A stretch of DNA of 64,000 nucleotides, from assembly GCA_038063715.1 (NCBI GenBank), contig JBBTUO010000007.1, forward strand, positions 1,540 through 65,539, written 5' to 3'. Below the pieces are notes generated by a model that had not been told where the DNA came from, searched no databases, and saw only the letters and a program-made list of their open reading frames with translations. The position numbers were made by a program, and so were the translations under genes. How positions within the stretch are numbered: the first letter of the stretch is position 1; every line of letters starts with the position of its first letter. Below are positions 2,852 through 24,295 of the stretch, piece after piece. This DNA comes from Patescibacteria group bacterium. GTDB taxonomy: Bacteria; Patescibacteriota; Minisyncoccia; Phycocordibacterales; SIBU01.

Positions 2852-3226
2852 ATGAATCCTAACGAAGAAAAATTAATCACCGGAACAGAATCGGAAACAC
2901 TGCTTCCTCCCAATAACTCCTCCACAAAAAGCGCAAAAGAATTTATGGCTACCACACCAGCCCACGAACTAGGAAATGTTTTTGGAGCGACTCCAGGCTC
3001 TCAGGTCTGGAAGCCAGAGGCAGCGACCGTAGCCCCGAAAACATGGTCAGCTCCGGAAAAAGAGACTACAAAATTTGTGCCTGTAAAACCTTTAACCGTT
3101 ATGCCGGCATCCGAACCTGCCAATAAGCCAAAAAGGTCAATTCTCAAAATAATCCGAAACATTTTCTTTACTGTACTCATCATTCTTGTCGGTCTATATA
3201 TTTGGGGAGCAATACTTGCGCGCTAG
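2852..3226 (+). CDS. Hypothetical small protein with C-terminal transmembrane anchor
   Basis: 124-aa ORF. Hydrophilic N-terminal part, then a hydrophobic tail (IFFTVLIILVGLYIWGAILA). TATAAT-like box upstream. No recognisable family. Confidence 0.35.
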   Translation: MNPNEEKLITGTESETLLPPNNSSTKSAKEFMATTPAHELGNVFGATPGSQVWKPEAATVAPKTWSAPEKETTKFVPVKPLTVMPASEPANKPKRSILKIIRNIFFTVLIILVGLYIWGAILAR

Positions 3227-3275
3227 CGTAATATCACTATACTAGTGCATGCATTAGTATAATTTTTATATTGGT

Positions 3276-4322
3276 ATGTCTAACCACAAAATAATAAGTG
3301 AGAAAAATTTGCCCGAATCGGAAGTTCAGTTTGATATTGAGATAGACCACCAGACTCTCGCAAAACACCGCACGTCTGGATTAAAAAGGCTTGCTTCAAC
3401 TGTATCGGTGCCAGGCTTTCGTGTTGGCCATGTACCAGAAAATATCGTAGTTCAAAAAGTTGGCGAGCAGGCAATTCTAAAAGAGGCAGCGTACGATGCT
3501 ATTGAAGAAGTGTTACCAGAAATAATAAAAGAGAAAAAAATTTCATCTGTAGGCGAACCCCAGATCTCGATCACTAAACTTGCAACTGGAAATCCTCTCG
3601 TCTTTACATTAGTGCTGTCACTATTTCCAGAAATTAATCTACCTGATTACAAAAAAATCGCGGGCACAGAAAACGCTAAAAAATTAGATGTAGGTGAAGT
3701 CTCTGAAAAAGAAGTAAACGATTTCATTGAAACAGTGCGTAAAAGCTTTGCACACAGCGTAGCGCCGAAGCATGAAGAAACGAAAGAACCTCATGAACAC
3801 CCTCTACCAGAACTGAACGACGAGTTTGTGAAGAAACTTGGTAACTTTAAGGATGTAGCCGATTTTAAAACAAAAATAAAAGAAAACCTCGGGCACGAAA
3901 AAACCCAAAAGGCCAAGGACAAGAAACGCCTCACCCTAGTCGAGGGCATCTTGGATAAAACCAAAATTACTGTACCAAAAGCGCTGATTGAAAATGAGCT
4001 AGTAAAAATGTTGGCACGGTTTCATGATGATGTAACGCGCATGGGAATGACCATGCCGGATTACTTGAAACAGATCAAAAAAACTGAGGATGACTTGAGG
4101 AAGGACTGGCGCAAAGATGCCGAGAAGCATGCCAAGCTTCAGCTCGTTCTAAGCTCAATCGCCGATAAAGAAAAAATTGAGGCTCCGGAAAACGAGGTAG
4201 GGCAGGAGGTGAAACACCTTACCGACGAACACAAAAATGTTGATCCTGTCCGTGCACGCGCCTACGTCACAATGATGCTCATCAACGAAAAAGTATTCGC
4301 ATTTCTGGAAGACCAGAAATAA
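3276..4322 (+). CDS. tig: Trigger factor-like chaperone (short form)
   Basis: The N-terminal ribosome-binding region (VPGFRVGHVPENIVVQKVGEQAILKEAAYDAIEEVL) resembles the tig signature GFRxGxxP. At 348 aa it is shorter than canonical trigger factor, so the PPIase domain is probably absent. Confidence 0.6.
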   Translation: MSNHKIISEKNLPESEVQFDIEIDHQTLAKHRTSGLKRLASTVSVPGFRVGHVPENIVVQKVGEQAILKEAAYDAIEEVLPEIIKEKKISSVGEPQISITKLATGNPLVFTLVLSLFPEINLPDYKKIAGTENAKKLDVGEVSEKEVNDFIETVRKSFAHSVAPKHEETKEPHEHPLPELNDEFVKKLGNFKDVADFKTKIKENLGHEKTQKAKDKKRLTLVEGILDKTKITVPKALIENELVKMLARFHDDVTRMGMTMPDYLKQIKKTEDDLRKDWRKDAEKHAKLQLVLSSIADKEKIEAPENEVGQEVKHLTDEHKNVDPVRARAYVTMMLINEKVFAFLEDQK

Positions 4323-9994: not shown

Positions 9995-11524
9995 ATGTCA
10001 TTAAAAGTAGTCATACTTCTCGCGAGCGTCGCAGGCGCTCTCGGAATTGCCTTGGGCTACTATCTCCGATTGATTATTTCATTGGGCAAACGAGGCTCGA
10101 TGGAACTAGAGATCAAGGAGATGATGCTCAAGGCAAAAGAGGAAGCAAAAAAAATTGAAGGAAGTGCACAAAGTAAAGCTGATGAAGCTCTCTCTGCCGC
10201 GCGTGCAGAAGCTAAAGAAAGAGAGGAGAAGTTAAAAAAGAGCGAAGAGCGCATTATCAAAAAAGAGGACACACTGGACCAACGCCAAGCCGATATTGAT
10301 AAGGAAGTTGAAAATATCAAGGTAAAAATTGCCGAGGTCAAGAAAATAAAAGAAAAGGTCGATGCTTTGGAGATTGAAAAAACAACCGAACTTTCAAAGA
10401 TCGCTCGCCTCTCCGAAGCGGAAGCAAGGGAGGAAATAATGAAAAGCGTCGAGAAAAAGTCAGAAGAGGATATTTTGTCTCGGATGCAGAAACTGGAGAA
10501 ATTTGGTGAGGAAAAACTTGAGAAAAAAGCTCAAGATATTTTGGCTACATCGATTCAGCGTTTGGGCAATTCAGTCTCAGCAGACATGCTCACCACCCAG
10601 GTTGCAATCCCAAATGATGAGATAAAGGGTAAGATCATCGGCAAGGAGGGGCGAAATATCAAAGCCTTTGAGCGGGCAACTGGAGTTGAAGTGATTGTAG
10701 ACGATACTCCGGGAGCAATTACCATATCTTCATTTGATCCTGTACGACGCCAGGTGGCTCGAGTAGCGCTCGAAAATCTCATTCTCGATGGCCGTATTCA
10801 ACCTGCCAAAATCGAGCAAGTTGTTGAAAAAGCCCAGGAAGAAATCAACAAAATCATCAAGGAAAAGGGTAACCAAGCAGTCTACGAAACCGGGGTACTC
10901 AATCTTGATCCACGAATTATCGCTATCTTAGGAAGACTCCACTTCCGCACAAGTTACGGCCAGAATGTTTTGCAACACTCAATTGAAATGACACACATTG
11001 CCGGTATGATCGCCGAAGAATTGAGGGCAAATGTCGCAGTTACAAAGGCCGGAGCGCTTCTACATGACATTGGCAAGGCTGTAGACCACGAGGTTCAGGG
11101 TACCCATGTAGAAATCGGCCGAAGAATCTTGCAAAAATTCGGCGCGGATGAAGCGATTGTCAAAGCCATGCAGGCCCACCATGGAGAGTATCCATATGAA
11201 ACTGTCGAGTCGATCATTGTACAGACCGCTGACGCCATTTCAGGATCACGACCGGGCGCTCGCCGAGACAGTGTTGAAAATTACCTAAAACGATTGGGTG
11301 ATCTTGAGGCAATTGCAAAATCATTACCGGGAGTTGAAAAATCATTTGCCTTGCAAGCTGGGCGTGAAATTCGAGTATTCGTGAACCCTGGTGAGATTAC
11401 TGATCTAGACGCCAAGAAAATGGCCCAAGATATTGCACAGAAGATTGAAAAGGAACTGAAATATCCAGGAGAAATAAAGGTGACAGTCATCAGAGAGTTG
11501 AGGACAATAGAATACGCTAGGTAA
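9995..11524 (+). CDS. rny: Ribonuclease Y
   Basis: N-terminal TM, a long coiled-coil, a KH domain (GKIIGKEGRNIKAFE) and an HD domain (LLHDIGKAVDHE...HH). Confidence 0.9.
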   Translation: MSLKVVILLASVAGALGIALGYYLRLIISLGKRGSMELEIKEMMLKAKEEAKKIEGSAQSKADEALSAARAEAKEREEKLKKSEERIIKKEDTLDQRQADIDKEVENIKVKIAEVKKIKEKVDALEIEKTTELSKIARLSEAEAREEIMKSVEKKSEEDILSRMQKLEKFGEEKLEKKAQDILATSIQRLGNSVSADMLTTQVAIPNDEIKGKIIGKEGRNIKAFERATGVEVIVDDTPGAITISSFDPVRRQVARVALENLILDGRIQPAKIEQVVEKAQEEINKIIKEKGNQAVYETGVLNLDPRIIAILGRLHFRTSYGQNVLQHSIEMTHIAGMIAEELRANVAVTKAGALLHDIGKAVDHEVQGTHVEIGRRILQKFGADEAIVKAMQAHHGEYPYETVESIIVQTADAISGSRPGARRDSVENYLKRLGDLEAIAKSLPGVEKSFALQAGREIRVFVNPGEITDLDAKKMAQDIAQKIEKELKYPGEIKVTVIRELRTIEYAR

Positions 11525-11560
11525 AAGCTCGCTCGCCGAGGTGAAGAGAAAAAATCCGAA

Positions 11561-11604
11561 AGCCCCCGTTCCGCTGTGAAGCGGAACGGGGGCTTTCTCT
11601 TTTC
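11561..11604 (+). terminator. Rho-independent terminator after rny
   Basis: AGCCCCCGTTCCGC-tgtga-AGCGGAACGGGGGCT followed by TTCTCTTTTC. Confidence 0.7.
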
Positions 11605-11652
11605 ACAATAAAAAAATCGCGAGGGCCTGCCCCCGCGATGATAACAAAACAA

Positions 11653-12402
11653 TTAGGTGACCAACGAACCGAGACTGCGACGAAGCATGGTTTTAGCAGT
11701 TCCCAAGCGCATATACACAGCAGTCTCGCCTCTCCCAACTCTCCGAGCAATATCCTGAACAGACAGCTCAGCCCAATAACGCCAGTAAACCACTTGCGAC
11801 AATGGCGCGGGGAGTTGCTCTACCGCTTCACGCACGAGCTCTGCAAACTCCGACCGAGACAGCTCCTCTAAGGGTGTGGGTGTTTCAGAATCCGGGCACT
11901 CTTTTCTGAACTGTCCAGAGTCGGGAGTAGTTATCGCATCATAACTAAGAGGATGATACACTCCGCCCAACAACTTCCACCGGGTCAGTGGGTCACAACC
12001 ATGCCGATCCACCACTTCTTCTAGCTTCACCTCCCGACCGTGCACCTCTGAAAGAACCCACCTTTCGTCCTCAAAACTCTGAAGCCTGGCGCAAAGCTCC
12101 TTAGGCATCGAGAAATTTGATCGAAGTTCTTCGATCAGAGCTCGGTGAATCACAACCGACGCCCACCCAGAAACATTATCGTTCAAGGCTGGCTTGTAAG
12201 ACGGAAGTGTTTTGTGCAACGCAATAGCGCCCGCAACCCACAAATCCTCAGCAGAGAGACCTCCGGGCAATTTGTCTGACCAGTGGCTCCGGAGAGCACT
12301 CACCTGAACATCTACCAGTGGTAGAAGTCTATAGAACAATTCGCCGTGAGCGAATGTCGCTTTGTCAAAAGAGAAAAAATCTGAAAACAGTCCTCCACGC
12401 AT
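11653..12402 (-). CDS. RNA polymerase sigma factor, sigma-70 family (FliA/SigF-like or ECF-like)
   Basis: Region-2-like segment (VSGWASVVIHRALIEELR) and a region-4 HTH (LSVQDIARRVGRGETAVYMRLGTAKTMLRRSL). The gene is markedly more GC-rich than its neighbours. A terminator on the minus strand lies at ~11610-11640. Confidence 0.7.
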   Translation of the reverse strand: MRGGLFSDFFSFDKATFAHGELFYRLLPLVDVQVSALRSHWSDKLPGGLSAEDLWVAGAIALHKTLPSYKPALNDNVSGWASVVIHRALIEELRSNFSMPKELCARLQSFEDERWVLSEVHGREVKLEEVVDRHGCDPLTRWKLLGGVYHPLSYDAITTPDSGQFRKECPDSETPTPLEELSRSEFAELVREAVEQLPAPLSQVVYWRYWAELSVQDIARRVGRGETAVYMRLGTAKTMLRRSLGSLVT

Positions 12403-15670: not shown

Positions 15671-15689
15671 TTTCTATTGACGGAACAGC

Positions 15690-15722
15690 AAAAACTCCCC
15701 GATGGCCATCGGGGAGTTTTTG
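15690..15722 (+). terminator. Rho-independent terminator after the LivJ-like gene
   Basis: ACTCCCCGATGG-ccat-CGGGGAGT followed by TTTTTG. Confidence 0.7.
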
Positions 15723-15877
15723 CGTTTGTGCGAGATGGGAGACGCTACGCTATCGAACTCCTGGGAAACCCTCGGTTTTCCCAATCCTTCCTCCACGGGG
15801 AACTCCCGTTCCCCGACCCCTTCCCAGTTCAATTCTCCCGTTCGCACAAAGAACCCCTTGCGGGGCTCTTTTGTTGT

Positions 15878-15947
15878 GCGGGACGGGAGAATCGAACTCC
15901 CGCCAAGTGTTTGGAAAACACCTATTCTACCATTAAACTAGTCCCGC
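15878..15947 (-). tRNA. tRNA-Trp (anticodon CCA)
   Basis: The reverse complement gives a 7-bp acceptor stem GCGGGAC/GUCCCGC, a T-arm GGGAG-UUCGAUU-CUCCC and an anticodon loop UUCCAAA, 70 nt in all. A hairpin plus T-run terminator follows on the minus strand (~15843-15868). Confidence 0.85.
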
Positions 15948-15950
15948 TTG

Positions 15951-16616
15951 TTATTTAAGAACCTCGTCAATCCACCCATTTATCCTTCGGGCAAGAAAAA
16001 CACCAAACTCTTTCCTACCGTGACTCCTAATACTAAGATGAGCCGTCCCAAAAGGCAACTTTCTTCTATTAAAACTTTTTTTATCTTTCCGAATATCTAC
16101 ATATGTTTTTTGAAAATAAATTGGTGCAATTGAGGTAGACTTGGACCAAAAAGCAACAGATTTAGCCTCATCAGAATCTGGATACAAGTGGAGCCTAAGT
16201 CTAAAGTTAACCTGTTTTAGATCGCAAACGTCCCTAAACCATTTAACAGCAAAACGTATAACCTTTGGGTCAGAATTTATTACCCTTATAATATCGTGAG
16301 TTTTCGCACCCTCTCCAATGTATAACCCTACTCCGAGCATAAACACATCTCGTGAGGAAAGGGCTCCTATATCTTTCCTTGCTTGTGTAACGGCCTCAGC
16401 AAACGACCTGAGTTTTTGTTTATTTTTTGCTAGACCAGACGCAGTACGAGCCTTACCCATCTTTAAAAGCATTTCATTATTCGGAGTGTAAGGCACAGAA
16501 GATAGCCAAGCACTCAATGTTCCTTTAGAAATCGCTGTCTTTTCTCCAATGTAAGTATACGAATAACCCTGTTTTCTCAAAGCAAAAGCCTGTTCACGAA
16601 TAGTACTATCCTTCAT
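15951..16616 (-). CDS. HTH + LAGLIDADG-like domain protein (homing-endonuclease-like), paralog A
   Basis: N-terminal HTH (ALRKQGYSYTYIGEKTAISKGTLSAWL). Single LAGLIDADG-like motif FMLGVGLYIGEGAK. A paralog lies at 21969-22634. The stop abuts tRNA-Trp. Confidence 0.5.
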   Translation of the reverse strand: MKDSTIREQAFALRKQGYSYTYIGEKTAISKGTLSAWLSSVPYTPNNEMLLKMGKARTASGLAKNKQKLRSFAEAVTQARKDIGALSSRDVFMLGVGLYIGEGAKTHDIIRVINSDPKVIRFAVKWFRDVCDLKQVNFRLRLHLYPDSDEAKSVAFWSKSTSIAPIYFQKTYVDIRKDKKSFNRRKLPFGTAHLSIRSHGRKEFGVFLARRINGWIDEVLK

Positions 16617-16706
16617 ATCCACATCATAGCAGATATAGTAGAAATGTTCAATTAATTGAAACCACATTAATAAGGTTGAAAAAACTCTTTGTGCTAAAAT
16701 GAAACA

Positions 16707-17849
16707 ATGCTAGAAAAATTTCTTTCACTAATACTCGGACTGCTTGGGATAGTAGCCACAACTGTGTCCTCCCCTGTTCAACCTGTACCAATCACACCAA
16801 AAATTACAGTAGCAACAACTACTCCTGCGAAAATCGCTACAACCTCGCCGGCAAAAGTCGAAACAAAAGTAACTAAAACGGTCAGGCCGGCGCCGAAGGC
16901 TCCCGAGGCGCCGGCCGAAATCATACCCGCAATAAAAACCTCAACGGTTATTCCTGTAGTGCCCGTTGTCGCCACAACTACCATTGTCAATTTCGAACCT
17001 CTAAACCAAAAAGCTCGCGAAGCGACTGTCAACATACTGTGTACCTCGTCGTCGGGAGGAAGTTTCGACCCCTTGAGCGGTAGCGGTGTTATCATCGACC
17101 CTCGCGGCATTATTCTCACTAACGCGCACATAGGACAATTTATGCTCCTAGAAAATCGCGACGGTAACCCTTTTATTCGCTGTGTAGCACGCACCGGCAG
17201 TCCAGCAACACCAAAATACACCCTAAAACTGCTTTACATTTCACGACAATGGGTAAAGGATAATTATCAACAAATAACGAGCAGTAACGCTACAGGCACC
17301 GGTGAGAATGATTATGCCCTGCTTCAAATAGTTGGAAGAACTGACCAGGTTCTTAAACTCGAAACCGACTTCCCACATCTTAATCTTGAGGGAAATACCC
17401 GAACATTCAAAACCGGCGATCCCGCGCTCGCCCTCGGCTACCCTGCAGGATTTTTAGGTGGGATTTCTATACAGCGAGAACTCTATGCCGTCTCAAGTAT
17501 TATAAAAATTGGGGAACGCTTCACATTTAGAGACGGAACAGTTGACGTATTTAGTCTTGGGGGCAGTCCCGTCGCTCAAAAAGGGGCGTCCGGCGGAGGC
17601 GTTGTAAACTCTGAAGGTAAGCTTATCGGTATTATAGTCACTTCAACCACAGCACCCTCAACAGATGGGCGCGATCTTGATGCAATATCGATTGAACACG
17701 TAAACAGAAGTCTTTTTGTCGAAACACGGCTAACGCTAGATTCATTTATACAATCGGACAACACGGCATTTTCAAAAGCGTTCGATGAAGAAATTCTGCC
17801 GGGCCTCAAAAAGCTCCTGGCGGACGAGCTCAGCGCAAAAAACCGCTAG
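16707..17849 (+). CDS. Trypsin-like serine peptidase (S1 family), membrane-anchored with Pro/Thr-rich linker
   Basis: N-terminal TM and a PT-rich low-complexity region. Catalytic-triad contexts: GSGVIIDPRGIILTNAHI (His), DYALLQI (Asp), GGSPVAQKGASGGGVVNSEGKLIGI (Ser). Confidence 0.65.
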   Translation: MLEKFLSLILGLLGIVATTVSSPVQPVPITPKITVATTTPAKIATTSPAKVETKVTKTVRPAPKAPEAPAEIIPAIKTSTVIPVVPVVATTTIVNFEPLNQKAREATVNILCTSSSGGSFDPLSGSGVIIDPRGIILTNAHIGQFMLLENRDGNPFIRCVARTGSPATPKYTLKLLYISRQWVKDNYQQITSSNATGTGENDYALLQIVGRTDQVLKLETDFPHLNLEGNTRTFKTGDPALALGYPAGFLGGISIQRELYAVSSIIKIGERFTFRDGTVDVFSLGGSPVAQKGASGGGVVNSEGKLIGIIVTSTTAPSTDGRDLDAISIEHVNRSLFVETRLTLDSFIQSDNTAFSKAFDEEILPGLKKLLADELSAKNR

Positions 17850-17865
17850 CATCTGCGTAGCTCCC

Positions 17866-17906
17866 TGTATACGTTTATAATACACGACCGTGTATTATAA
17901 ACGTAT
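17866..17906. repeat. Perfect inverted repeat TATACGTTTATAATACACG-ac-CGTGTATTATAAACGTATA (19-bp arms)
   Basis: Read directly. Lies between two convergent genes. Confidence 0.8.
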
Positions 17907-17931
17907 ACCGAAAAATAAAGCGGATTATGAA

Positions 17932-18231
17932 TTATTGATTTTGAGCGAGCGCGAGCAGGGCATCGAAATTATCCGTGGGCAAAACTTTATTTTTTCGCTC
18001 AAATCCGCAACGCACGCACTGCTGAATCACTGAATACTGCTCGCCTTTTTTAATCGCTGAAACAGGCTTCATTAGTCCCCCGCAAATTTCATCTCTATCC
18101 CCTGGATTTACATCCACATGCTTGCTCCACAAGCATTTCGGACAATGATTGGTAAACCCGTCCCCTACTACTGAATTACCGCAGTGTTCGCAGGTAAAAT
18201 CTTCAACCTTTTTTTGAAATAATTTTTTCAT
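17932..18231 (-). CDS. Zinc-ribbon protein with RNHCP-like motif
   Basis: CEHCGN...FTNHCPKCLWSKH...CVRCGF, i.e. CxxC pairs and the N-H-C-P signature. Confidence 0.55.
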   Translation of the reverse strand: MKKLFQKKVEDFTCEHCGNSVVGDGFTNHCPKCLWSKHVDVNPGDRDEICGGLMKPVSAIKKGEQYSVIQQCVRCGFERKNKVLPTDNFDALLALAQNQ

Positions 18232-18354
18232 TTAATTAATATACATTACATCATATATAGCAAAACATACCTTGCTGCCTATAAACTTTAGTTCAGTAAA
18301 GTAACCAAGATTATATTTTTTCTGTTTAAATTTTGAAATGCATGTATAAAAAAC

Positions 18355-19413
18355 TTATTCCTTCTTTGATTTTTCTATGCGCTCCTTTCGCTTGTACCAG
18401 CCAGCTTGTAATTTAACCTTATTTTCGTTTGCATAGGCTTCTGCTTTTCTAAACATCTCAAGTGCTTCGCCATTGCGTCCTCCATCTGAAAGTTCCGCAA
18501 AATCCTGAAAAAGCATCTCGAGATAATTCATAAACTTTCTATCGCGGCGTGCTTCAAAACCACCCGGGTGATCTGTGCCCTTGCCTGAATAGACTGTGGC
18601 GCTTGGAAATGTCTCTCCTATCGAATATAGTGCGGTAATCACAGTACCACCTCTATCCATCATGTCATCTGCAACAATAACTGTCGTTGTCGTTCCACCG
18701 GATTCACCTGCCTCAGAAACAGCTTTCTGATTTTCCTTATCAACCGCAATAACAAACGAATCTACGGAAAAAGAATTGTCCCCGTATCTCTCAACAATTT
18801 TTTTGACCAACTCTACATAAACACTTCCTCCGCTCAAAATGCCTCCAACTTTTGTGCCTTTTTGAAAAAACTTGTTTACGGCATTTATAGTCAGATCATT
18901 CGTGCCCCGTAAAAACTCGTCGAGCACATAACGCATTTCCTCTTGTGTGAGCTTGTGATTAGGTGTCTCTACCGACTTAGCTTTTTCGGCAACCCGAGCA
19001 AGCATATCATCTGTGGCGCGCAAAAGATTTTGTATCGAAAATTGCGGAGGGAGACCGTGTCCAGAACCAGCATCCTGCTCAGAATACTGACTAGATAGAC
19101 GTTTTGTACCCTCTACAAAAGAGGGGTCGACCGGAGACGGGGTATCCTCCAAAGACTGGGCCATAATTACGTTGGCCATTTGGGTAGACAATAGATGAGC
19201 CTCCTTCAAAACATTTTGACAAACAGCATAATCCTGCTCCGTCAGCGCCTCAGTTCTCAGCTTTCTTAAAACTCTAATCCCTTCTTGTAATTTTCTTTCG
19301 TTTTCCAACTTTAATTCGCGCTCTGCCTCAGAAAGCGCTGGTCGTTCCATTTTTTTAAAGCTTGTATGGCTACCGCCAAGCAACGCTTCGAAACCTCCTG
19401 AATTAAAAGACAT
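18355..19413 (-). CDS. Protein with C-terminal type I phosphoribosyltransferase-like domain
   Basis: A PRTase-type PRPP-binding motif (TTVIVADDMMDRGGTVITAL) in the C-terminal third. The N-terminal ~230 aa is unrecognised. Confidence 0.45.
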   Translation of the reverse strand: MSFNSGGFEALLGGSHTSFKKMERPALSEAERELKLENERKLQEGIRVLRKLRTEALTEQDYAVCQNVLKEAHLLSTQMANVIMAQSLEDTPSPVDPSFVEGTKRLSSQYSEQDAGSGHGLPPQFSIQNLLRATDDMLARVAEKAKSVETPNHKLTQEEMRYVLDEFLRGTNDLTINAVNKFFQKGTKVGGILSGGSVYVELVKKIVERYGDNSFSVDSFVIAVDKENQKAVSEAGESGGTTTTVIVADDMMDRGGTVITALYSIGETFPSATVYSGKGTDHPGGFEARRDRKFMNYLEMLFQDFAELSDGGRNGEALEMFRKAEAYANENKVKLQAGWYKRKERIEKSKKE

Positions 19414-19478
19414 AAAATTATATGCTTATATTAACAATTAGCGCATTTATGAACAAGGTTTCGCAGGTTTAGCAAATT

Positions 19479-19496
19479 ACTTTAGTTAACTAAAGT
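19479..19496. repeat. Perfect palindrome ACTTTAGTTAACTAAAGT (copy 1 of 3)
   Basis: Read directly. Lies in the purD / PRT-domain gene intergenic region. Confidence 0.8.
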
Positions 19497-19506
19497 GGAA
19501 AAATTT

Positions 19507-20775
19507 CTATCGAATAGATTTTTTACCGATATCTTTTCGGTATTGCATTCCCAAAAAAGAAATTTTTTCTAAACTTTTGTAAGCTGAAGAAAGCGCCGAT
19601 TCCAGCGTAGTGCCAGTCGCAGTTACTCCTAAAACGCGTCCCCCCGCGGTAACAATTTTTTTGCCCAAAGCTTTCGTGCCTGCATGAAAAACCACAGTAT
19701 CGCTATTCTTTTCCGCATCTCGAATACCCGTGATTTCATCGCCCTTTCTAGTTTCTTCGGGGTAGTTTTCGGCGGCCGCAACAACGCAACAGGCATAGCC
19801 TGATTTCCATTGTATATTCGTTTTACTCAATTTTCCATCAATACAGGACTCAATAACATTGATAATATCGCTATCCAAAAGTCTCATAAATGATTGGGTT
19901 TCCGGATCGCCAAATCGGGCATTGAATTCAAGTACTCGTATTCCATCCCCTGTGACCATAATTCCTGGGAAAAGAACTCCTCGAAACTCTCGGCCTCCTT
20001 TTGCCAAACCGCGAATCGTCGGGATCACAACCTTGTCTTTTATTTCCACCATTAAAGATTCGGTTACCCAAGGCACTGGCACGATGGTGCCCATGCCACC
20101 CGTGTTTGGTCCTTGATCATTTTCATGAATACGTTTGTGATCCTGGGCCGGCGGAAACAAAATAATTGATTCGCCATCAGAAAAAGCGTGTATAGAAATT
20201 TCTTGACCGTCTAAAAATTCTTCGATAACAATCTCGTTTCCAGCATCACCGAAAATCTTTTCATTCATACATGAATCGAGAACCTCAAGCGCCTCTTTTT
20301 CATTCTGTACTATACTCACACCTTTGCCGAAAGCCAGACCGCTTGCCTTTATCACTAGCGGGAATTTTTGCGTCTGAATATATGACTTGGCTTTTTCATA
20401 TTTAGTAAATATCTGACACGCAGCGGTAGGAATCCCCTCTTCAGCCATAAATTGCTTAGCAAAGCTTTTTGACCATTCAATTTGAGACGCTCGTTTTGTG
20501 GGACCAAAAACTCTGATATTTTTCGATTGTAAATAATCGACTATACCGTCAGCCAGCAAATTGTCCGGACCAACAATCACTAGATCTATTTTTTGTTGTA
20601 CACAAAAATCGGCAACCGAAGCATGGTTGCCTAAGTCGAGATCAATATTTTCTACGCCTTGCGCTGTACCCGGATTACCTGGCGCGACAAAAAGTTTCTC
20701 GACCCTCGGAGATTGTTTACACTTCCACGCGAGTGCGTGTTCTCGTCCACCGCTTCCTAAGATGAGGATGTTCAT
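19507..20775 (-). CDS. purD: Phosphoribosylamine--glycine ligase
   Basis: MNILILGSGGREHALAWK... is the ATP-grasp PurD signature. The 422-aa length is canonical. Confidence 0.92.
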   Translation of the reverse strand: MNILILGSGGREHALAWKCKQSPRVEKLFVAPGNPGTAQGVENIDLDLGNHASVADFCVQQKIDLVIVGPDNLLADGIVDYLQSKNIRVFGPTKRASQIEWSKSFAKQFMAEEGIPTAACQIFTKYEKAKSYIQTQKFPLVIKASGLAFGKGVSIVQNEKEALEVLDSCMNEKIFGDAGNEIVIEEFLDGQEISIHAFSDGESIILFPPAQDHKRIHENDQGPNTGGMGTIVPVPWVTESLMVEIKDKVVIPTIRGLAKGGREFRGVLFPGIMVTGDGIRVLEFNARFGDPETQSFMRLLDSDIINVIESCIDGKLSKTNIQWKSGYACCVVAAAENYPEETRKGDEITGIRDAEKNSDTVVFHAGTKALGKKIVTAGGRVLGVTATGTTLESALSSAYKSLEKISFLGMQYRKDIGKKSIR

Positions 20776-20779
20776 GGGA

Positions 20780-21107
20780 TTTTGATCTACTGAAAGCGCC
20801 GGGAAGTTCGACCCTTACAGGGTCAGTACCCCGATTGGTTTTTCTGGCACGCTTCGCTTCCAGAAAAAGCTCAATCGGGCTTCGATTCCCGGACGACTGT
20901 GCTCCCAGCACATTCTCGCCCTCGCTTCACTTGCTTAAAGCATCGAGGAATCTGTCACAACTCTTCTGCTTCGCTAAAGCTCCGCCACGAAGGTCGCGAC
21001 CCCGCCTCGCCGTCGCAAAGCGACATGCTCCGGCCTTCGATTCCCGGACGCGAGCAAAGCAGTTTGCTCGCTCTCCCCTCACTTCACTACGCCTAGCTCC
21101 GTTTCGT
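20780..21107. repeat. Two diverged tandem repeat units (~150 nt each) containing tRNA T-arm-like TTCGATTCCCGGACG and internal hairpins, adjacent to tRNA-Pro
   Basis: GGGCTTCGATTCCCGGACG at ~20877 and GGCCTTCGATTCCCGGACG at ~21033. Each is followed by a hairpin (TGTGCTCCCAGCACA and GAGCAAAGCAGTTTGCTCG) and CTC-rich tails. Overlapping ORFs on both strands have non-protein-like composition. Confidence 0.5.
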
Positions 21108-21178
21108 TCGGGGCGCCGGGAATCGAACCCGGGCCGCATGATCCCAAATCATGAATACTACCGCTATAATACGCCCCG
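21108..21178 (-). tRNA. tRNA-Pro (anticodon TGG)
   Basis: The reverse complement gives a 7-bp acceptor stem CGGGGCG/CGCCCCG, an anticodon stem-loop CAUGA-UUUGGGA-UCAUG and a T-arm CCCGG-GUUCGAUU-CCCGG. Confidence 0.85.
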
Positions 21179-21230
21179 TAGAAACCACAGCTTATCATAA
21201 AAACTAAAAAACAGCCAAGAGGCCTTTTTT

Positions 21231-21638
21231 CTATAAAATTAGATCTTCCAAAATTTTTAATCTTGCAATTTTGTTTTTCGAATCAAGCAAAACGGTAACA
21301 ACATCAAATTGCCACTCGGTCTCCTCCCCCACCCTTTTTTCTAATAAATAAACTTGTATGGCTCGCGAGAGGCGTTTCAGCTTCCAAGGATGGACATTGT
21401 CCTCAGGCCTAGAACTGTCCGCTGTTTCAGGTGTAACATTCAAAAGATCCTCGCGGGACACGGTTTTTACTTCAACAAAGTGGATCCTCCCAGCCTTTTT
21501 AACAATTACGTCTATTTCTCCAAATTTCCTTCTATAGTTCCTGTCGATGACATCATAGCCCTTATTCACAAGGAATTTAGAGGCTATTTCCTCTCCCAAA
21601 GCCCCTATTTTCTGCTTTTCAGTAGGCTCTCGTTTCAT
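21231..21638 (-). CDS. YraN-family (UPF0102) endonuclease
   Basis: ALGEEIASKFLVNKGYDVIDRNYRRKFGEIDVIVKKAGRIHFVEVKT is the classic UPF0102 pattern. Confidence 0.7.
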   Translation of the reverse strand: MKREPTEKQKIGALGEEIASKFLVNKGYDVIDRNYRRKFGEIDVIVKKAGRIHFVEVKTVSREDLLNVTPETADSSRPEDNVHPWKLKRLSRAIQVYLLEKRVGEETEWQFDVVTVLLDSKNKIARLKILEDLIL

Positions 21639-21893
21639 AAGAAACCTTAATTAATGTTTTCACGTGAAACATTCGCTGTTTTTTATGAATAAAAGCATGT
21701 CTTTTTTAAAATACCTATATTTTAAAGCGTTTAATGGTATTTTGATGTGAAAATTCTGCTAACTCTGCAAGTGTCCTTTATACACACATCCCCACAGTTA
21801 TCCCCAGTTTTACTGTTTTTTCCTTAAAATAAGCCGTTTTGGGTAGGGGATAAGAAGTGGGTAAATCGTGTCCTTTTAGAATTATTTGAATTG

Positions 21894-21964
21894 TGCGGGT
21901 GCCGGGAATCGAACCCGGGACTAAATCTTGGCAAGATCTCGTTTTACCACTAAACCACACCCGC
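21894..21964 (-). tRNA. tRNA-Gly (anticodon GCC)
   Basis: The reverse complement is GCGGGUGUGGUUUAGUGGUAAAACGAGAUCUUGCCAAGAUUUAGUCCCGGGUUCGAUUCCCGGCACCCGCA. Anticodon loop UUGCCAA. Confidence 0.85.
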
Positions 21965-21968
21965 AATT

Positions 21969-22634
21969 TTATTTTGAAACAGAAAGATCCTCGGAGGCCA
22001 GTTGCAACCATGCTAACATCTTTTCTTTAAAATATCTATTGTGGAAAGCGACATTACAAACTCCATAGCTTAATCGACGAACTGAACTCTTGCCTTTAAT
22101 TGTAATACTATTACGAAAATTACTTTCACCTAAAGTAATTTTTTCCTTCCAAAAATTCCTACAAACATCGTCTTTTAAATCCGGGTAAAGCAACAACCAC
22201 ACAGTAATTTTTTCAACTTCAATTTTGCAAATTTCTCTTAAAAACCTAATGAAAACCTTGATCATTAGGGGTTCGGTATTCGCAATACCACAGCGATATT
22301 TTGACCTCTTATCTCCTTCGCCCCAATAAATCATTAAACCGGCTATAAATAGGGGATTTGTGCGAAATTTTTTGTACTCATCTTTGGCTTCACGCCTTGC
22401 GTCATCATACGAATCAGTCAGCTTTTTCATCCTTGCCGTGTGCATAAGTTTTAATTTGTAAGAATTTTTTGTTGACGCTTTGGAAGCCAGCCGAGATTTT
22501 ATTTCACTCGACCAAGCCTCATTCTTAAACCAATCTGACAAAATCGCCATGGACATGCCCAATATTTTCCTGATCTCCTGATAACTCCTGCCTTGCTTCC
22601 TCAATTCAAATGCTTTTTGTTTATCGAATCGCAT
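21969..22634 (-). CDS. HTH + LAGLIDADG-like domain protein, paralog B
   Basis: N-terminal HTH (ELRKQGRSYQEIRKILGMSMAILSDWF). LAGLIDADG-like motif NPLFIAGLMIYWGEGDKR. The stop abuts tRNA-Gly on the same strand. Confidence 0.5.
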   Translation of the reverse strand: MRFDKQKAFELRKQGRSYQEIRKILGMSMAILSDWFKNEAWSSEIKSRLASKASTKNSYKLKLMHTARMKKLTDSYDDARREAKDEYKKFRTNPLFIAGLMIYWGEGDKRSKYRCGIANTEPLMIKVFIRFLREICKIEVEKITVWLLLYPDLKDDVCRNFWKEKITLGESNFRNSITIKGKSSVRRLSYGVCNVAFHNRYFKEKMLAWLQLASEDLSVSK

Positions 22635-22719
22635 AAACAGTATTATATAACATCTAATAGATAGTTCAATATCAATTATTTCGGATTTTGTGTATAATAA
22701 TTAAATTAACAAATAAACT

Positions 22720-22791
22720 GCGCCTATAGTGAAATGGATATCATACCTGCCTTCGAAGCAGATGTTCCAGGTTCGAATCCTGGTGGGCGCA
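22720..22791 (+). tRNA. tRNA-Arg (anticodon TCG)
   Basis: GCGCCUAUAGUGAAAUGGAUAUCAUACCUGCCUUCGAAGCAGAUGUUCCAGGUUCGAAUCCUGGUGGGCGCA. Anticodon loop CUUCGAA and T-loop GGUUCGAAUCC. Confidence 0.85.
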
Positions 22792-22798
22792 CAAAATT

Positions 22799-24295
22799 AT
22801 GAAGAAAAGTGAGCATTTCGATCTCCCCGAAGAAGTAGTGACGATTGCAAAAACCCTTAAAACGGCTAATTTTCAGGCCTATTTGATCGGAGGCTGTGTT
22901 CGAGACATTCTACTCGATCGTAAACCGAAAGATTGGGATTTCACAACAAATGCTACACCGGAAGAAATAATAAAGCTGTTTCCAAAAACTTTTTATGAAA
23001 ACGCCTATGGAACTGTCGGGGTTGTGAATGAAACTGCTACCGATGAAACACTTAAGGTTGTGGAGATAACTCCATACCGCCTAGAAGCAACCTACAAAGA
23101 TTTTCGTCGCCCAAGCGAAGTAAAGTGGAGCGATAAATTGGAAGACGATCTACAGCGGCGAGATTTTACAATTAACGCTATCGCGCTTGAGATCGGTGAA
23201 AAAGTAGGGGATTCGTATAAGAGACAATTGACTGACCTATATAAAGGACAAGAGGATTTGGCTCGTAAAACTGTAAAGACCGTGGGCGACCCTCATGACC
23301 GTTTCAGCGAGGACGCCCTGAGAATGCTCAGGGCGATCCGAATCGCCACCGAACTTGGTTTCACCATTGATACTGAAACGGCTTCAGCTATAGCTAAATA
23401 CGCTCATTTACTTAAGGAAATAGCCCAGGAACGCATTCGGGATGAGTTTGTAAGGATAATAATGTCTGACAACCCTATGGTTGGCGTTATTTTGTGTCAA
23501 AAGCTCGGTATTTTGCAATATGTTGCACATGAAACAGAGAAGGCCATCGGAATAGAGCAAAACCAGGCCCACGCTTTTGATGTTTGGGAGCACCTCCTAC
23601 GATCGCTCCAACACGCTGCTGACAAGAAATGGCCCCTAGAAATAAGGCTTGCAGCCCTGTTTCATGATATTTCCAAGCCTGAAACACGAAGATCGTCTCC
23701 GAAAACAAAGTGGACATTCTACGGCCACGAAGTGGTTGGTTCACGTGTAACCAAGAAAATTCTTGAAAGACTCAAGTTCCCATCAAAAACCATTGAGACG
23801 GTCACGAAACTGGTTCGCTGGCACATGTTTTTCTCTGATACGGAGCAAATCACACCATCTGCCGTGAGACGCCTAATTGCCAAGGTGGGTAAGGACAATG
23901 TCTGGGATCTGATGAATCTACGCATCTGTGACCGAATAGGCACTGGCAGACCTAAAGAAAACCCTTACCGACTACGCAAATATAAGGCAATGATTGAAGA
24001 GGTAATGAGGGATCCGGTATCAGTGGGGATGCTTAAAATTGATGGAAACAAGTTAACTGATGTTACACATGTAACACCTGGACCTAAAATAGGGCAAATA
24101 TTGAACGCTTTGCTTGAGGAGGTGCTTGAAAATCCGAAACTCAATACCGAGGAATACCTAGAGAATAGGGCGGTGGAACTATCAAAGGTTTCAGATGAAA
24201 CACTAAAAACGCTCGCTGATAAGGGAAAAGAGGCCAAAAATGAGCTCGAGGAGGAGAGTATTAAGGAAATTAGAGACAAATATAAGGTGGAGTAG
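22799..24295 (+). CDS. cca: CCA-adding tRNA nucleotidyltransferase / poly(A) polymerase family with HD domain
   Basis: N-terminal Pol-beta-like motif GGCVRDILLDRKPKDWDFTT. HD motif LFHDISKP. Lies directly downstream of tRNA-Arg. Confidence 0.85.
   Translation: MKKSEHFDLPEEVVTIAKTLKTANFQAYLIGGCVRDILLDRKPKDWDFTTNATPEEIIKLFPKTFYENAYGTVGVVNETATDETLKVVEITPYRLEATYKDFRRPSEVKWSDKLEDDLQRRDFTINAIALEIGEKVGDSYKRQLTDLYKGQEDLARKTVKTVGDPHDRFSEDALRMLRAIRIATELGFTIDTETASAIAKYAHLLKEIAQERIRDEFVRIIMSDNPMVGVILCQKLGILQYVAHETEKAIGIEQNQAHAFDVWEHLLRSLQHAADKKWPLEIRLAALFHDISKPETRRSSPKTKWTFYGHEVVGSRVTKKILERLKFPSKTIETVTKLVRWHMFFSDTEQITPSAVRRLIAKVGKDNVWDLMNLRICDRIGTGRPKENPYRLRKYKAMIEEVMRDPVSVGMLKIDGNKLTDVTHVTPGPKIGQILNALLEEVLENPKLNTEEYLENRAVELSKVSDETLKTLADKGKEAKNELEEESIKEIRDKYKVE

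Follow-up and report, generated by a model that had tools for sequence, protein, structure and literature searches.

Several non-coding RNAs take a tRNA-like form and arise through tRNA-processing enzymes, among them mascRNA (from MALAT1), the tRNA-like domain of tmRNA and the tRNA-like module of YrlA, a bacterial Y RNA (PMC4201824). In the full-text literature searched, elements such as those reported here were not described; the nearest were group I introns in the tRNA anticodon loops of Patescibacteria (PMC13011429), which are a different thing. The window analysed here is a stretch of 64,000 nucleotides of a Patescibacteria contig, to which all coordinates refer, and the region of interest lies in it between a tRNA-Pro gene and purD. 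It is best explained as two tandem members of a multi-copy, ORF-less, structured family located at tRNA 3' flanks in Patescibacteria and read as tRNA-mimicking RNAs, an explanation given about an even chance and close to the duplicated small RNA suggested in an earlier note on this DNA. Two identities come into question for the element, a new tRNA-like RNA and a very small mobile element.

The tRNA-Pro/purD spacer

The gene for tRNA-Pro(tgg) (21108..21178, minus strand), which lacks an encoded CCA, was identified by ARAGORN and by the Rfam tRNA model (58.5 bits). Its T-loop, T-stem 3' strand and acceptor 3' strand read TTCGATTCCCGGCGCCCCGA, the template for the arms of the downstream elements. 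The approximately 330 bases between this gene and the purD start codon (20775) consist of two diverged units of about 155 nt, as the earlier note had proposed: a 20-mer, CGG[G/C]CTTCGATTCCCGGACG, occurs on the plus strand at 20876-20895 and 21031-21050 (19 of 20 positions identical, 155 nt apart), and a second common block, CCCTC[G/A]CTTCACT, at 20919 and 21076 (157 nt apart). With up to three mismatches allowed, the 20-mer matched only these two sites in the 64-kb window, and shuffles expect none. Tandem Repeats Finder returned nothing, MAFFT aligned the units in patches only, and units A and B are two different subtypes, type A adjoining the tRNA gene and type B adjoining purD.

The T-loop and the T-stem 3' strand of tRNA-Pro recur, exactly reverse-complemented, as the core of the 20-mer. 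A T-arm match in the orientation opposite to tRNA-Pro had already been noticed, and TTCGATTCCCGG is indeed complementary at 12 of 12 positions to the plus-strand reading of tRNA-Pro; the hairpins reported after each core are likewise present (TGTGCTCCCAGCACA and CGAGCAAAGCAGTTTGCTCG, plus strand). A third T-arm-derived piece that the note had overlooked, GCGCCGGGAAGTTCGACCC (20796-20814, plus strand), lies in the orientation of tRNA-Pro and forms the right-hand arm of the distal unit, and a direct repeat of the tRNA-Pro 3' end, CCCGGCGC, is found at 20792-20805. The G+C content of the region is 55-59% versus about 40% around it, with a C-rich plus strand, and the informative strand is the minus strand, that of the tRNA.

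Downstream of tRNA-Pro, spacer and unit A leader read ACGAAACGGAGCTAGGCGTAGTGAAGT (21081..21107, minus strand); the ACGAA..GTGAAG leader is also present in L166, a locus with the orthologous tRNA-Pro/purD spacer, in L139 and in the Ser and Val loci of L138. Unit A (20947..21080, minus strand), with a minimum free energy of -60.3 kcal/mol on the minus strand versus -45.3 kcal/mol on the plus strand, comprises on the minus strand a G-rich acceptor-like leader (21071-21080), hairpin P1 (21051-21070), the left arm CGTCCGGGAATCGAAG (21035-21050, the 20-mer being 21031-21050), hairpin P2 (21009-21034), and helix P5, in which GGTCGCG (20995-21001) pairs with TGTGAC (20954-20959) and encloses a further hairpin (20960-20994). 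Its right arm AGATTCC (20947-20953) pairs with GGAATC of the left arm.

The leader of unit B, TCGATGCTTTAAGCAAGTGAAGC (20924..20946, minus strand), is homologous to those of unit A and L166. Unit B itself (20792..20923, minus strand) was recognized by the covariance model R1 with 88.9 bits (E = 6e-22). In the order of the minus strand it contains the acceptor-like 5' strand GAGGGCG (20917-20923), hairpin P1 (20898-20912), the left arm CGTCCGGGAATCGAAG (20880-20895, the 20-mer being 20876-20895), the long hairpin P2 (20830-20879), the junction GTACT (20825-20829), hairpin P3 with the sequence GACCC-TGTAA-GGGTC (20810-20824), GAAC (20806-20809), the right arm TTCCCGG (20799-20805), which pairs with CCGGGAA, and the acceptor-like 3' strand CGCTTTC (20792-20798), which pairs with GAGGGCG. 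A link of 16 nt, AGTAGATCAAAATCCC (20776..20791, minus strand), joins the end of unit B to the purD ATG (20775..20773). No terminator was found between tRNA-Pro and unit A, and none was predicted from tRNA-Pro to purD; therefore tRNA-Pro, both units and purD would form one transcription unit.

The ORFs overlapping the region (64-121 aa) had been taken to be of non-protein composition, and the four overlapping ORFs gave no match in Pfam. In the ENA metagenome contig L003, genes of 64 and 70 aa have been called on the region. No Rfam match was obtained within 20780-21107, even at E<=10, so that the scan proposed earlier disclosed no known RNA family covering it; ARAGORN and Rfam found four true tRNAs in the window and neither tRNA nor tRNA pseudogene in 20780-21107.

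Several known RNA classes and elements were considered and rejected. For tmRNA, standard or permuted, ARAGORN gave no hit, and the permuted model scored 14.6 bits against a gathering threshold of 47, overlapping the 3' end of tRNA-Pro. Resemblances to known ribozymes (hammerhead, CUGA..GAAA), to the sarcin-ricin or loop E motif, to SRP and 5S RNA and to the tmRNA tRNA-like domain were dropped, as Rfam lent them no support and the consensus cores of the modules do not fit. As a retroelement primer-binding site the left arm lacks a CCA complement and hairpin P1 interrupts its complementarity; the ORFs scanned beside arrays included no reverse transcriptase. A group I intron in a tRNA is excluded by the lack of an Intron_gpI match and by cores of 50-100 nt lying downstream of intact tRNAs, and a MITE or IS-derived repeat by the lack of fixed terminal inverted repeats, the ends changing with the tRNA.

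A module family behind tRNA genes

The repeats were also present in related genomes, so that neither of the two outcomes named in the earlier note as refuting it, a known RNA family over the region and absence from all relatives, was obtained. In Patescibacteria contigs, modules of the same design follow genes for tRNA-Glu, Gly, Pro, Ser, Val and Arg, often as tandem arrays, and a look-alike was found behind tRNA-Lys in a Clostridia genome assembled from a metagenome, which suggests that the principle is not confined to Patescibacteria. In each module the left arm is the reverse complement of the T-loop and T-stem 3' strand of the neighbouring tRNA, often preceded by an acceptor complement and hairpin P1; the core consists of two to four hairpins with conserved junction bases; and the right arm is a direct copy of the tRNA 3' end. 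Seven T-arm sequences (Pro, Pro of L166, Ser-cga, Val, Ser-gct, Gly-tcc and Lys) are matched by the left arm at 10-12 of 12 positions, and the inverted ends vary with the tRNA (CCGGGAATCGAA, GGAGGATTTGAA, GAGGACTCGAA, GGGATTCGAA). Behind tRNAs that had not been used in locus selection, a small sample, an inverted T-arm copy was found in about half of the cases versus about 0.04 per tRNA by chance.

A third element of this design occurs in the window behind tRNA-Gly(tcc) (15877-15947), at 15688..15876 on the minus strand. From the tRNA outwards, all on the minus strand, it displays a palindromic terminator (15845-15876), a left arm GGGAGAATTGAAC (15827-15839) that is the reverse complement of the tRNA-Gly T-loop and T-stem 3' strand at 11 of 12 positions, a two-hairpin core unlike those of units A and B (15758-15826), a right arm TTCGAT-AGCGTAGCGT-CTCCC (15737-15757), a decayed acceptor copy (15729-15736) and a second, different terminator (15688-15728).

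Model R1, which represents type B, gave 70-114 bits in at least 15 distinct loci, and also 91.5 bits in L166, which was found only through protein synteny and carries a variant arm. In a negative control of 100 unrelated loci with the exact 16-mer, taken among the matches listed, R1 reached at most 26 bits. In one of the chance loci, L114, look-alike units happen to accompany an unrelated tRNA-Lys. When the genome collection was scanned with the bare 16-mer, almost all matches among those listed were chance occurrences inside genes, while at least two Saccharibacteria loci were real; the 16-mer of L097 (Minisyncoccia) was rejected as a chance match, as it lies in an extended G+C-rich stretch of a locus that contains no tRNA. 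In the window and nine homologous loci, Rfam disclosed only tRNAs at both gathering and permissive thresholds. Wherever a tRNA is adjacent, the module is on the strand of that tRNA; G exceeds C in 12 of 12 arrays, and the tRNA strand folds better in nine of them. The array of the window folds with -137 kcal/mol on the tRNA strand versus -106 on the opposite one, although for type B alone the gap in energy between the strands is small.

On the tRNA strand the arms are predicted to pair, giving a minihelix of acceptor/T-stem type that ends in a multi-helix junction. The topology so modelled is tRNA-like: a T-stem-like helix stacks on an acceptor-like stem, P1 forms the single side arm, and a three- or four-way junction is predicted in place of the T-loop. 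In the unconstrained folds a 5' acceptor strand, side arm(s) and the T-stem 5' strand succeed one another, the T-stem 3' strand continues into the acceptor 3' strand, and the helices are coaxial. For unit B the unconstrained minimum free energy structure coincides with the centroid (-59.5 kcal/mol, z = -4.5) and yields exactly the architecture annotated above; the fold of acceptor, S1, P1, P2 and P3 was also returned for six of eight other elements. The acceptor-like stem of unit B, GAGGGCG/CGCUUUC, differs from that of tRNA-Pro, CGGGGCG/CGCCCCG, by two double compensatory changes and by two C-to-U changes that leave G.U pairs, so that every pair is preserved.

In the type B alignment (16 homologues) 96.8% of cells are paired versus 76.6% after shuffling and 25-57% in slid controls; 11 pairs are changed on both sides, and none of 500 shuffles, which ignore phylogeny, matched the observed values. 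Among the exceptions in S1, C.A is as numerous as G.U. The type A alignment (8 loci) has 87.9% of cells paired versus 79.5% after shuffling, which here too ignores phylogeny, and 29-46% in slid controls, and a G.U pair is conserved in seven of the eight loci. Covariation thus supports the helices, as read against shuffling of this kind and in loci that were mostly found by a pattern fixing the arm sequence; because of this pattern, the covariation of S1 rests on few independently found loci. The conserved unpaired bases of the cores are AAUCGAAG, GUACUGA, UGUAA and UACU.

The wider distribution bears on a cis-regulatory purD leader, that is, a tandem riboswitch or attenuator. The position directly upstream of purD in both the window and L166, and the GC-rich, structured sequence with two related domains, would suit such a leader; yet the same modules also stand behind tRNAs that precede unrelated genes (UPF0102, NUDIX, RhuM/Fic and others), or ahead of terminators, the leader is missing from the purD homologues of L162-L165, purD lacks conserved synteny, and riboswitch models for purine, ZTP and PRPP did not match. 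This explanation is largely refuted and is regarded as scarcely credible.

Turnover and possible origins

The orthologous spacer of L166 keeps unit B and is without unit A. Compensatory changes between L166 and the window were found in S1 (CCGGGA/UCCCGG versus CCGAGA/UCUCGG), P3 and P2, and, as far as sequence comparison goes, the retention of unit B at the orthologous site together with the acceptor adapted in place in the window points to selection on the integrated copy. The content of the arrays changes rapidly: besides the missing unit A of L166, module order differs between L125 and L136 behind the same tRNA-Gly, and neither L167 nor L169 has an A or B core behind tRNA-Pro. Cores also recur in other contexts, the B core of the window being about 95% identical over about 105 nt to a tRNA-Glu core in L141 with unalignable flanks, and L126 and L127 sharing modules about 97% identical next to P1 and terminator hairpins that are completely different.

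Perfect direct copies of the tRNA 3' end, 13-21 nt long and running to the discriminator or CCA, were found in other loci; those of L139 (20 nt), L138 Ser (17 nt) and L114 (21 nt including CCA) start inside the T-loop. Duplication of tRNA 3' fragments, one of the earlier suggestions, is therefore retained in part: the cores derive from the tRNA 3' end, and 3' ends are duplicated and rearranged at these loci. Fossil att sites alone would not account for the same cores recurring behind different tRNAs in different genomes, and inert fossils of large integrated elements are contradicted by the covarying cores, by the retention of unit B in a relative and by the window, in which neither an integrase nor a distal att copy was found.

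These direct repeats are also what a mini non-autonomous integrative DNA element without an RNA role would leave. A circle, or a single strand folded into a hairpin, of about 130-240 nt would recombine with the tRNA gene inside the T-loop, using a recombinase supplied in trans, and replace the T-stem 3' strand, acceptor strand, trailer and terminator with new ones while the old tRNA 3' end is pushed downstream; in the free form the inverted and direct tRNA-end copies would pair into a duplex att site, as in integron attC or CTX phage attP. The inserts indeed measure 130-240 nt, a direct tRNA 3' repeat stands at their far end, tandem arrays are formed, presence differs between relatives and cores change from one tRNA context to another. 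In many cases the right-hand copy is decayed, and tRNA end, terminator and left arm make up a perfect palindrome; where the right acceptor copy is decayed and the left arm is perfectly complementary to the tRNA itself (L126, L141 and L138 Val), a displaced dead tRNA end is a better fit than an acceptor stem under selection. Behind tRNA-Gly(tcc) of the window the two terminators are different. L129 shows an alternation of islands and units with TAGGGTCAC at their boundaries; one island, inserted at a tRNA-end copy, encodes a large serine recombinase.

Against this stands the lack of a consistently nearby recombinase: no constant protein partner or integrase was found next to the arrays, integrase and cargo genes do not lie between the repeats, and the sole recombinase belongs to the separate L129 island. 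Viral contigs gave no match to the full pattern and 14 to a shorter core pattern, judged to be chance (R1 at most 21.5 bits, no tRNA in the fetched stretch), and blastn found no match in phage and plasmid records. Moreover, T-loop crossover between different tRNAs would yield chimeric, dead tRNAs, the breakpoints of shared blocks vary in a way that resembles homologous exchange and not a fixed site, no circular or empty-site junction was seen, and both the compensated unit B at an orthologous site and its adapted acceptor in the window speak for selection on the integrated copy. The integrative element is the main rival of the preferred reading and is held to be rather unlikely.

Neutral mutational debris at tRNA genes would also produce such repeats: old integrations would leave tRNA 3'-end copies, and template switches during replication of hairpins, with quasipalindromes corrected and extended at terminators and T-arms, would generate functionless inverted copies and palindromes. 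Template switching between imperfect inverted repeats is an established mechanism (for example PMC7202029, PMC8604942). Long perfect palindromes centred on terminators, nested tRNA-Pro fragments in L167-L169, and a Glu left acceptor copy that is the exact complement of the 3' strand (GACCCTA) and does not reproduce the 5' strand of the tRNA itself (GGCCCTA) are consistent with it. A core of 75-100 nt would not, however, persist as debris, and the same cores, with conserved unpaired bases and covarying stems, stand behind six tRNA species in many genomes, remain about 97% identical where neighbouring hairpins are fully replaced, and are kept at an orthologous site, so that this origin is considered very unlikely.

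A further proposal, taken as a whole to be distinctly unlikely, regards the modules as self-customising tRNA-end mimics. They would be either tiny hairpin-folded integrative elements that rebuild a duplex T-arm copy from the inverted and direct repeat and insert into tRNA T-loops with a recombinase in trans, by analogy a tRNA-targeted counterpart of integron cassettes or CTX-type attP, or antisense RNAs with 12-20 nt complementary to the T-loop, T-stem and acceptor of the upstream tRNA, which, while that tRNA matures, might affect the tRNA itself or compete with it for its enzymes.

On the preferred reading as tRNA-mimicking RNAs, we infer transcription, processing and any function. The module would be transcribed together with the tRNA and fold as RNA. 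In the Ser and Pro loci no terminator precedes the element and a clear one follows it, and none precedes it in the Val locus; in the Glu and Gly loci a terminator-like palindrome lies between tRNA and element, so that co-transcription there would need read-through. As the module presents a tRNA-like minihelix, RNase P and RNase Z could excise it from the precursor and the CCA-adding enzyme, which the window encodes at 22799-24295, could complete it. The module may then act as tRNA-like punctuation and possibly persist as a stable small RNA, while the family would spread and be homogenised by recombination among copies and at tRNA 3' ends, with arms re-templated from the local tRNA.

Comparison with known systems

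Patescibacteria, whose genomes measure about 1 Mb, possess few RNA-processing enzymes, and an inverted T-arm copy behind about half of the non-selected tRNAs, in a small sample, is a notable investment for such genomes. If they are RNAs, the modules represent a new class of tRNA mimic with stems copied from the neighbouring tRNA, which could account for the separation of tRNA-mRNA transcripts, here tRNA-Pro and purD, and could yield abundant small RNAs. If they are DNA elements, no smaller tRNA-targeted integrative units would have been described so far, and they would serve as a model for the copying, inversion and reuse of tRNA 3' ends. On either reading they create pseudo-att sites, L129 having one in use, mislead gene callers and are missing from Rfam.

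With att scars and CIMEs the modules share the location at the tRNA gene 3' end, a direct repeat of the 3' segment beginning in the T-loop, tandem accretion and the character of a recombination hot spot, exemplified by the serine-recombinase island at a tRNA-end copy in L129. They differ in measuring only 130-240 nt without ORF or integrase, in the extra inverted T-loop/T-stem copy, and in cores that covary and are conserved across genomes and tRNA species, with one copy kept at an orthologous site. REP/BIME and MITEs (Correia and Rickettsia palindromic elements) are likewise multi-copy and ORF-less, with hairpins, inverted-repeat ends, arrays and polymorphism between relatives; the module ends, in contrast, vary with the tRNA and show no fixed transposase site, the modules are restricted to tRNA 3' flanks and the tRNA strand, and neither the usual target-site duplication nor a cognate transposase was identified for them. 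Integron attC and CTX attP also have two inverted target-like copies around a variable structured spacer that folds into a duplex mimic of the target, and arrays that adjoin the target site; the modules lack a linked IntI or Xer and coding cassettes, their target would be the tRNA T-arm, and the likeness is one of analogy only.

Group I introns interrupt the anticodon loop, whereas the junction of the modules occupies the T-loop-like position of a tRNA-like scaffold. As in mascRNA, tmRNA and YrlA, an acceptor-like stem stacks on a T-stem-like helix in the strand topology of a tRNA and is encoded beside or within a longer transcript. Unlike these RNAs, the modules have no significant match to the Rfam tRNA, tmRNA or mascRNA models, a multi-helix junction replaces the T-loop, processing is only putative, many copies occur in arrays, and the stems are not fixed but copied from the upstream tRNA.

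Repeated units between tRNA-Pro and purD

The genes on the minus strand were arranged as a CCA-adding enzyme gene (22799-24295, divergent), tRNA-Arg, tRNA-Gly(gcc), UPF0102/YraN, tRNA-Pro(tgg) at 21178..21108, a region of 330 nt and purD, which starts at 20775. The CCA-adding enzyme gene adjoins the tRNA cluster, with the same synteny in the comparison loci L167-L169, and none of the window's four tRNA genes (15876-22792) encodes CCA. In this metagenome-assembled Patescibacteria genome purD (19507-20775) is followed by genes for a 352-aa protein without assigned function and an RNHCP-domain protein (17932-18231). The window sequence was also found in Hainich groundwater metagenomes.

The earlier note had described two repeated units with T-arm-like cores opposed to the tRNA, and both features were recovered. 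Two 20-mers (20876-20895 and 21031-21050, plus strand) differ by one base at a spacing of 155 nt and are unique in the 64 kb at up to three mismatches, where no match was expected; their core TTCGATTCCCGG is perfectly complementary to the plus strand reading of the tRNA-Pro T-arm. An additional piece resembling tRNA-Pro (20796-20814), oriented like the tRNA itself, had been overlooked. The G+C content of the region is 55–59% versus about 40% in its surroundings, and its minus strand is G-rich. The ORFs had been judged non-protein, in agreement with a Pfam search of four overlapping ORFs that gave no match, and a coding region is unsupported. In an ENA metagenome contig (L003, 604-1026), genes of 70 and 64 aa without Pfam match were called over the structured region and are probably false gene calls. 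An Rfam scan of the region gave no match even at E<=10, and a known Rfam family was rejected. Since the units belong to two distinct subtypes, Tandem Repeats Finder reported no array here.

On the tRNA strand, a complete type B module begins with a leader or palindromic terminator, an acceptor-like 5' strand and hairpin P1, continues with CG, the left arm (e.g. CCGGGAAUCGAA then G), long hairpin P2 and the junction GUACU, and ends with hairpin P3 (GAnnn-UGUAA-nnnUC), GAU, an optional small hairpin P4 (GCG-UACU-CGC), the right arm UCCCGG and an acceptor-like 3' strand. Unit B (20792-20923, minus strand) contains every part but P4. In its unconstrained fold an acceptor-like stem of 7 bp stacks on a T-stem-like helix, also of 7 bp, and P1, P2 and P3 form as well, the minimum free energy structure being identical to the centroid (-59.5 kcal/mol, z = -4.5), and six of eight other elements gave the same fold without constraints. 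Unit A (20947-21080, minus strand), of type A, has the left arm and P1 as in unit B and a different P2; its helix P5 (GGUCGC/GUGACC) encloses another hairpin, and its right arm GAUUCC pairs with GGAAUC. The two types are linked by a composite module in L125 (2060-2260), a tRNA-Gly locus, in which the type B junction and P3 (GTACTGA CCATGTAATGG) occur with the type A helix (TCGCGAC..GTTGTGAC AGATTCC), and this sequence suggests that type A derived from a B-like ancestor.

Beyond types A and B there are at least two more core types. One, conserved and common to the tRNA-Glu locus L129 (4172-4294) and the tRNA-Pro locus L168 (about 3205-3345), reads CAGCGGARTCAT, hairpin, AGCTGGTGCCCAGAC, hairpin. 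A third window element, at 15688-15876 on the minus strand, follows tRNA-Gly(tcc) (15877-15947) and has the same design with another core of two hairpins. It lies between two non-identical terminators, and GGGAGAATTGAAC, its left arm, is the tRNA-Gly(tcc) T-arm in reverse complement. No element was found behind tRNA-Gly(gcc) or tRNA-Arg of the window.

Relatives and correspondence with the neighbouring tRNA

Species-representative genomes scanned with the 16-mer CGTCCGGGAATCGAAG gave mostly chance matches inside genes, with at least two Saccharibacteria loci with the same surroundings among the matches listed. A metagenome scan for TCCGGGAATCGAAG, a gap of 35–65 and GTACTGA returned 24 loci, 17 of them real (15 new and two metagenome copies of the window). 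In nearly all of these the unit lies directly downstream of a tRNA on the same strand, namely Glu(ttc/ctc), Gly(gcc) or Pro(ggg). From 16 type B units we built a covariance model, R1, which disclosed extra copies in locus L138, one behind tRNA-Ser(cga) and one behind tRNA-Val(gac), as well as within an island of L129 and inside arrays. Four syntenic loci were obtained via UPF0102 homologues. The repeats noted earlier are indeed present in related genomes, as in one of these loci, L166, where a single type B unit (91.5 bits with R1) lies between tRNA-Pro and the purD orthologue. One hundred unrelated loci with the exact 16-mer scored at most 26 bits with R1, so the family is defined by far more than its T-arm-like core.

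Seven tRNAs were compared, and the left arm reads as the reverse complement of the T-loop and T-stem 3' strand of the tRNA upstream. It matches at 12 of 12 positions for Pro of the window (CCGGGAATCGAA), Pro of L166 (CCGAGAATCGAA, T-stem CCGAG/CTCGG) and Ser-cga of L138 (GGAGGATTTGAA), at 11 for Val of L138 (GAGGACTCGAA), Gly-tcc of the window (GGGAGAATTGAA) and Lys of the Clostridia locus L114 (GGGGATTCGAA), and at 10 for Ser-gct of locus L162 (GGGATTCGAA); the identity ends at T54 in every case. The right arm directly repeats the tRNA 3' end, over 20 nt in locus L139, 17 nt at L138 Ser, 13 nt in L166 and 21 nt (CCA included) in L114. The search pattern that yielded most loci fixes the arm, and those sampled independently are a handful; among tRNAs not used for locus selection, about half have an inverted T-arm copy within 400 nt behind them (chance about 0.04 per tRNA). 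We conclude firmly that the modules form a genuine and widespread family, linked to the 3' flanks of tRNA genes and carrying arms that match the neighbouring tRNA.

L114 (5052-5500), from a rumen Clostridia MAG (JAFZNN010000131.1), has two or three units behind tRNA-Lys(ttt), each ordered as hairpin, GGGGATTCRAAGG (reverse complement of T-loop and T-stem), GC-rich hairpin core and a perfect tRNA 3'-end copy; the design may therefore also occur outside Patescibacteria. The tRNA-Glu of locus L126 (13584-13656) reads TTCGATTACCGG, with A at T-stem position 61, a nearly invariant C, whereas its close relative L129 has the normal CCCGG; the gene may be damaged, or the assembly may be in error.

Maintenance of the helices

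In the type B alignment 96.8% of cells are paired versus 76.6% after shuffling and 25–57% in slid registers, and eleven pairs are altered on both sides; no shuffle reached the observed values, the shuffles ignoring phylogeny. For type A, the paired-arm helix S1 and P5 are 87.9% paired versus 79.5% in shuffles, which likewise ignore phylogeny, and 29–46% when slid. A G.U pair is kept in seven of eight type A units, where the opposite strand would have an A.C mismatch. The tRNA strand is G-rich in all 12 arrays and folds better in 9; for the window region the energies are about -138 versus -107 kcal/mol. Unit B and its orthologue in L166 show compensatory differences in S1, P3 and P2. Between the acceptor-like stem of unit B (GAGGGCG/CGCUUUC) and tRNA-Pro six positions differ with no pair broken, two pairs being altered on both sides (G1-C72, A2-U71) and two C-to-U changes leaving G.U. 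The right arm of the L166 unit has remained an exact copy of the tRNA, and the first two bases of the leader are unpaired there. The helices are firmly judged to be maintained; neutral debris fits poorly and is improbable. A purD riboswitch is a poor fit too and highly improbable; a purD leader was rejected, as purD homologues elsewhere lack modules and modules precede unrelated genes or terminators.

Turnover and origin of the modules

Unit A is missing from L166 and was therefore gained in the lineage of the window. The tRNA-Gly genes of loci L125 and L136 are identical, but the terminators and the order of the modules differ. A module of about 97% identity occurs in both L126 and L127, whose P1 and terminator hairpins are unrelated in sequence. 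The core of unit B has about 95% identity with that behind the tRNA-Glu of L141, with unalignable flanks. In L129 (1390-12335) inserts separate tRNA-Glu from its terminator and element. Four copies of TAGGGTCAC set off, in order, tRNA-Glu, a serine-recombinase island, terminator and element, a second insert, and another terminator and element; because these copies bound the inserts, the right arm of an element has served as attachment site. The first insert encodes a large serine recombinase (513 aa, 10759-12300) reading into the tRNA 3' end, and the element between the inserts has a different core. The distal element is flanked by a tRNA 3'-fragment-like repeat, CGATTCCAATTTGAAC(T)ACA. In the orthologous tRNA-Pro loci L167 (2909-3237), L168 (2909-3390) and L169 (2915-3350), nested 5' halves, which stop in the anticodon loop, and 3' fragments, including a 38-nt copy of the 3' half, surround the intact tRNA. 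The acceptor CGCCCCG of the old 3' ends fits the upstream 5' fragment and not the current tRNA (CACTCCG), so that the tRNA-Pro gene looks, from these sequences, to have been replaced repeatedly by insertion.

The main rival is a mini integrative element acting purely at the DNA level, with crossover in the T-loop. It accounts better than an RNA for decayed right arms, for the perfect palindromes around terminators at Glu and Gly loci and for direct repeats including CCA, and we rate it as possible but rather unlikely. With moderate confidence we prefer a structured RNA mimicking the acceptor/T-stem minihelix of its tRNA: the module would be made from the tRNA transcript and probably handled by tRNA-processing enzymes, and the family would be renewed via recombination at tRNA ends. 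The two readings are compatible, as a selfish insertion with a tRNA-like fold, trimmed away and hence harmless, would satisfy both. A phage- or plasmid-borne element was rejected, none occurring in the collections searched. Compared with the group I introns described for tRNAs of Patescibacteria, the modules are of a different type.
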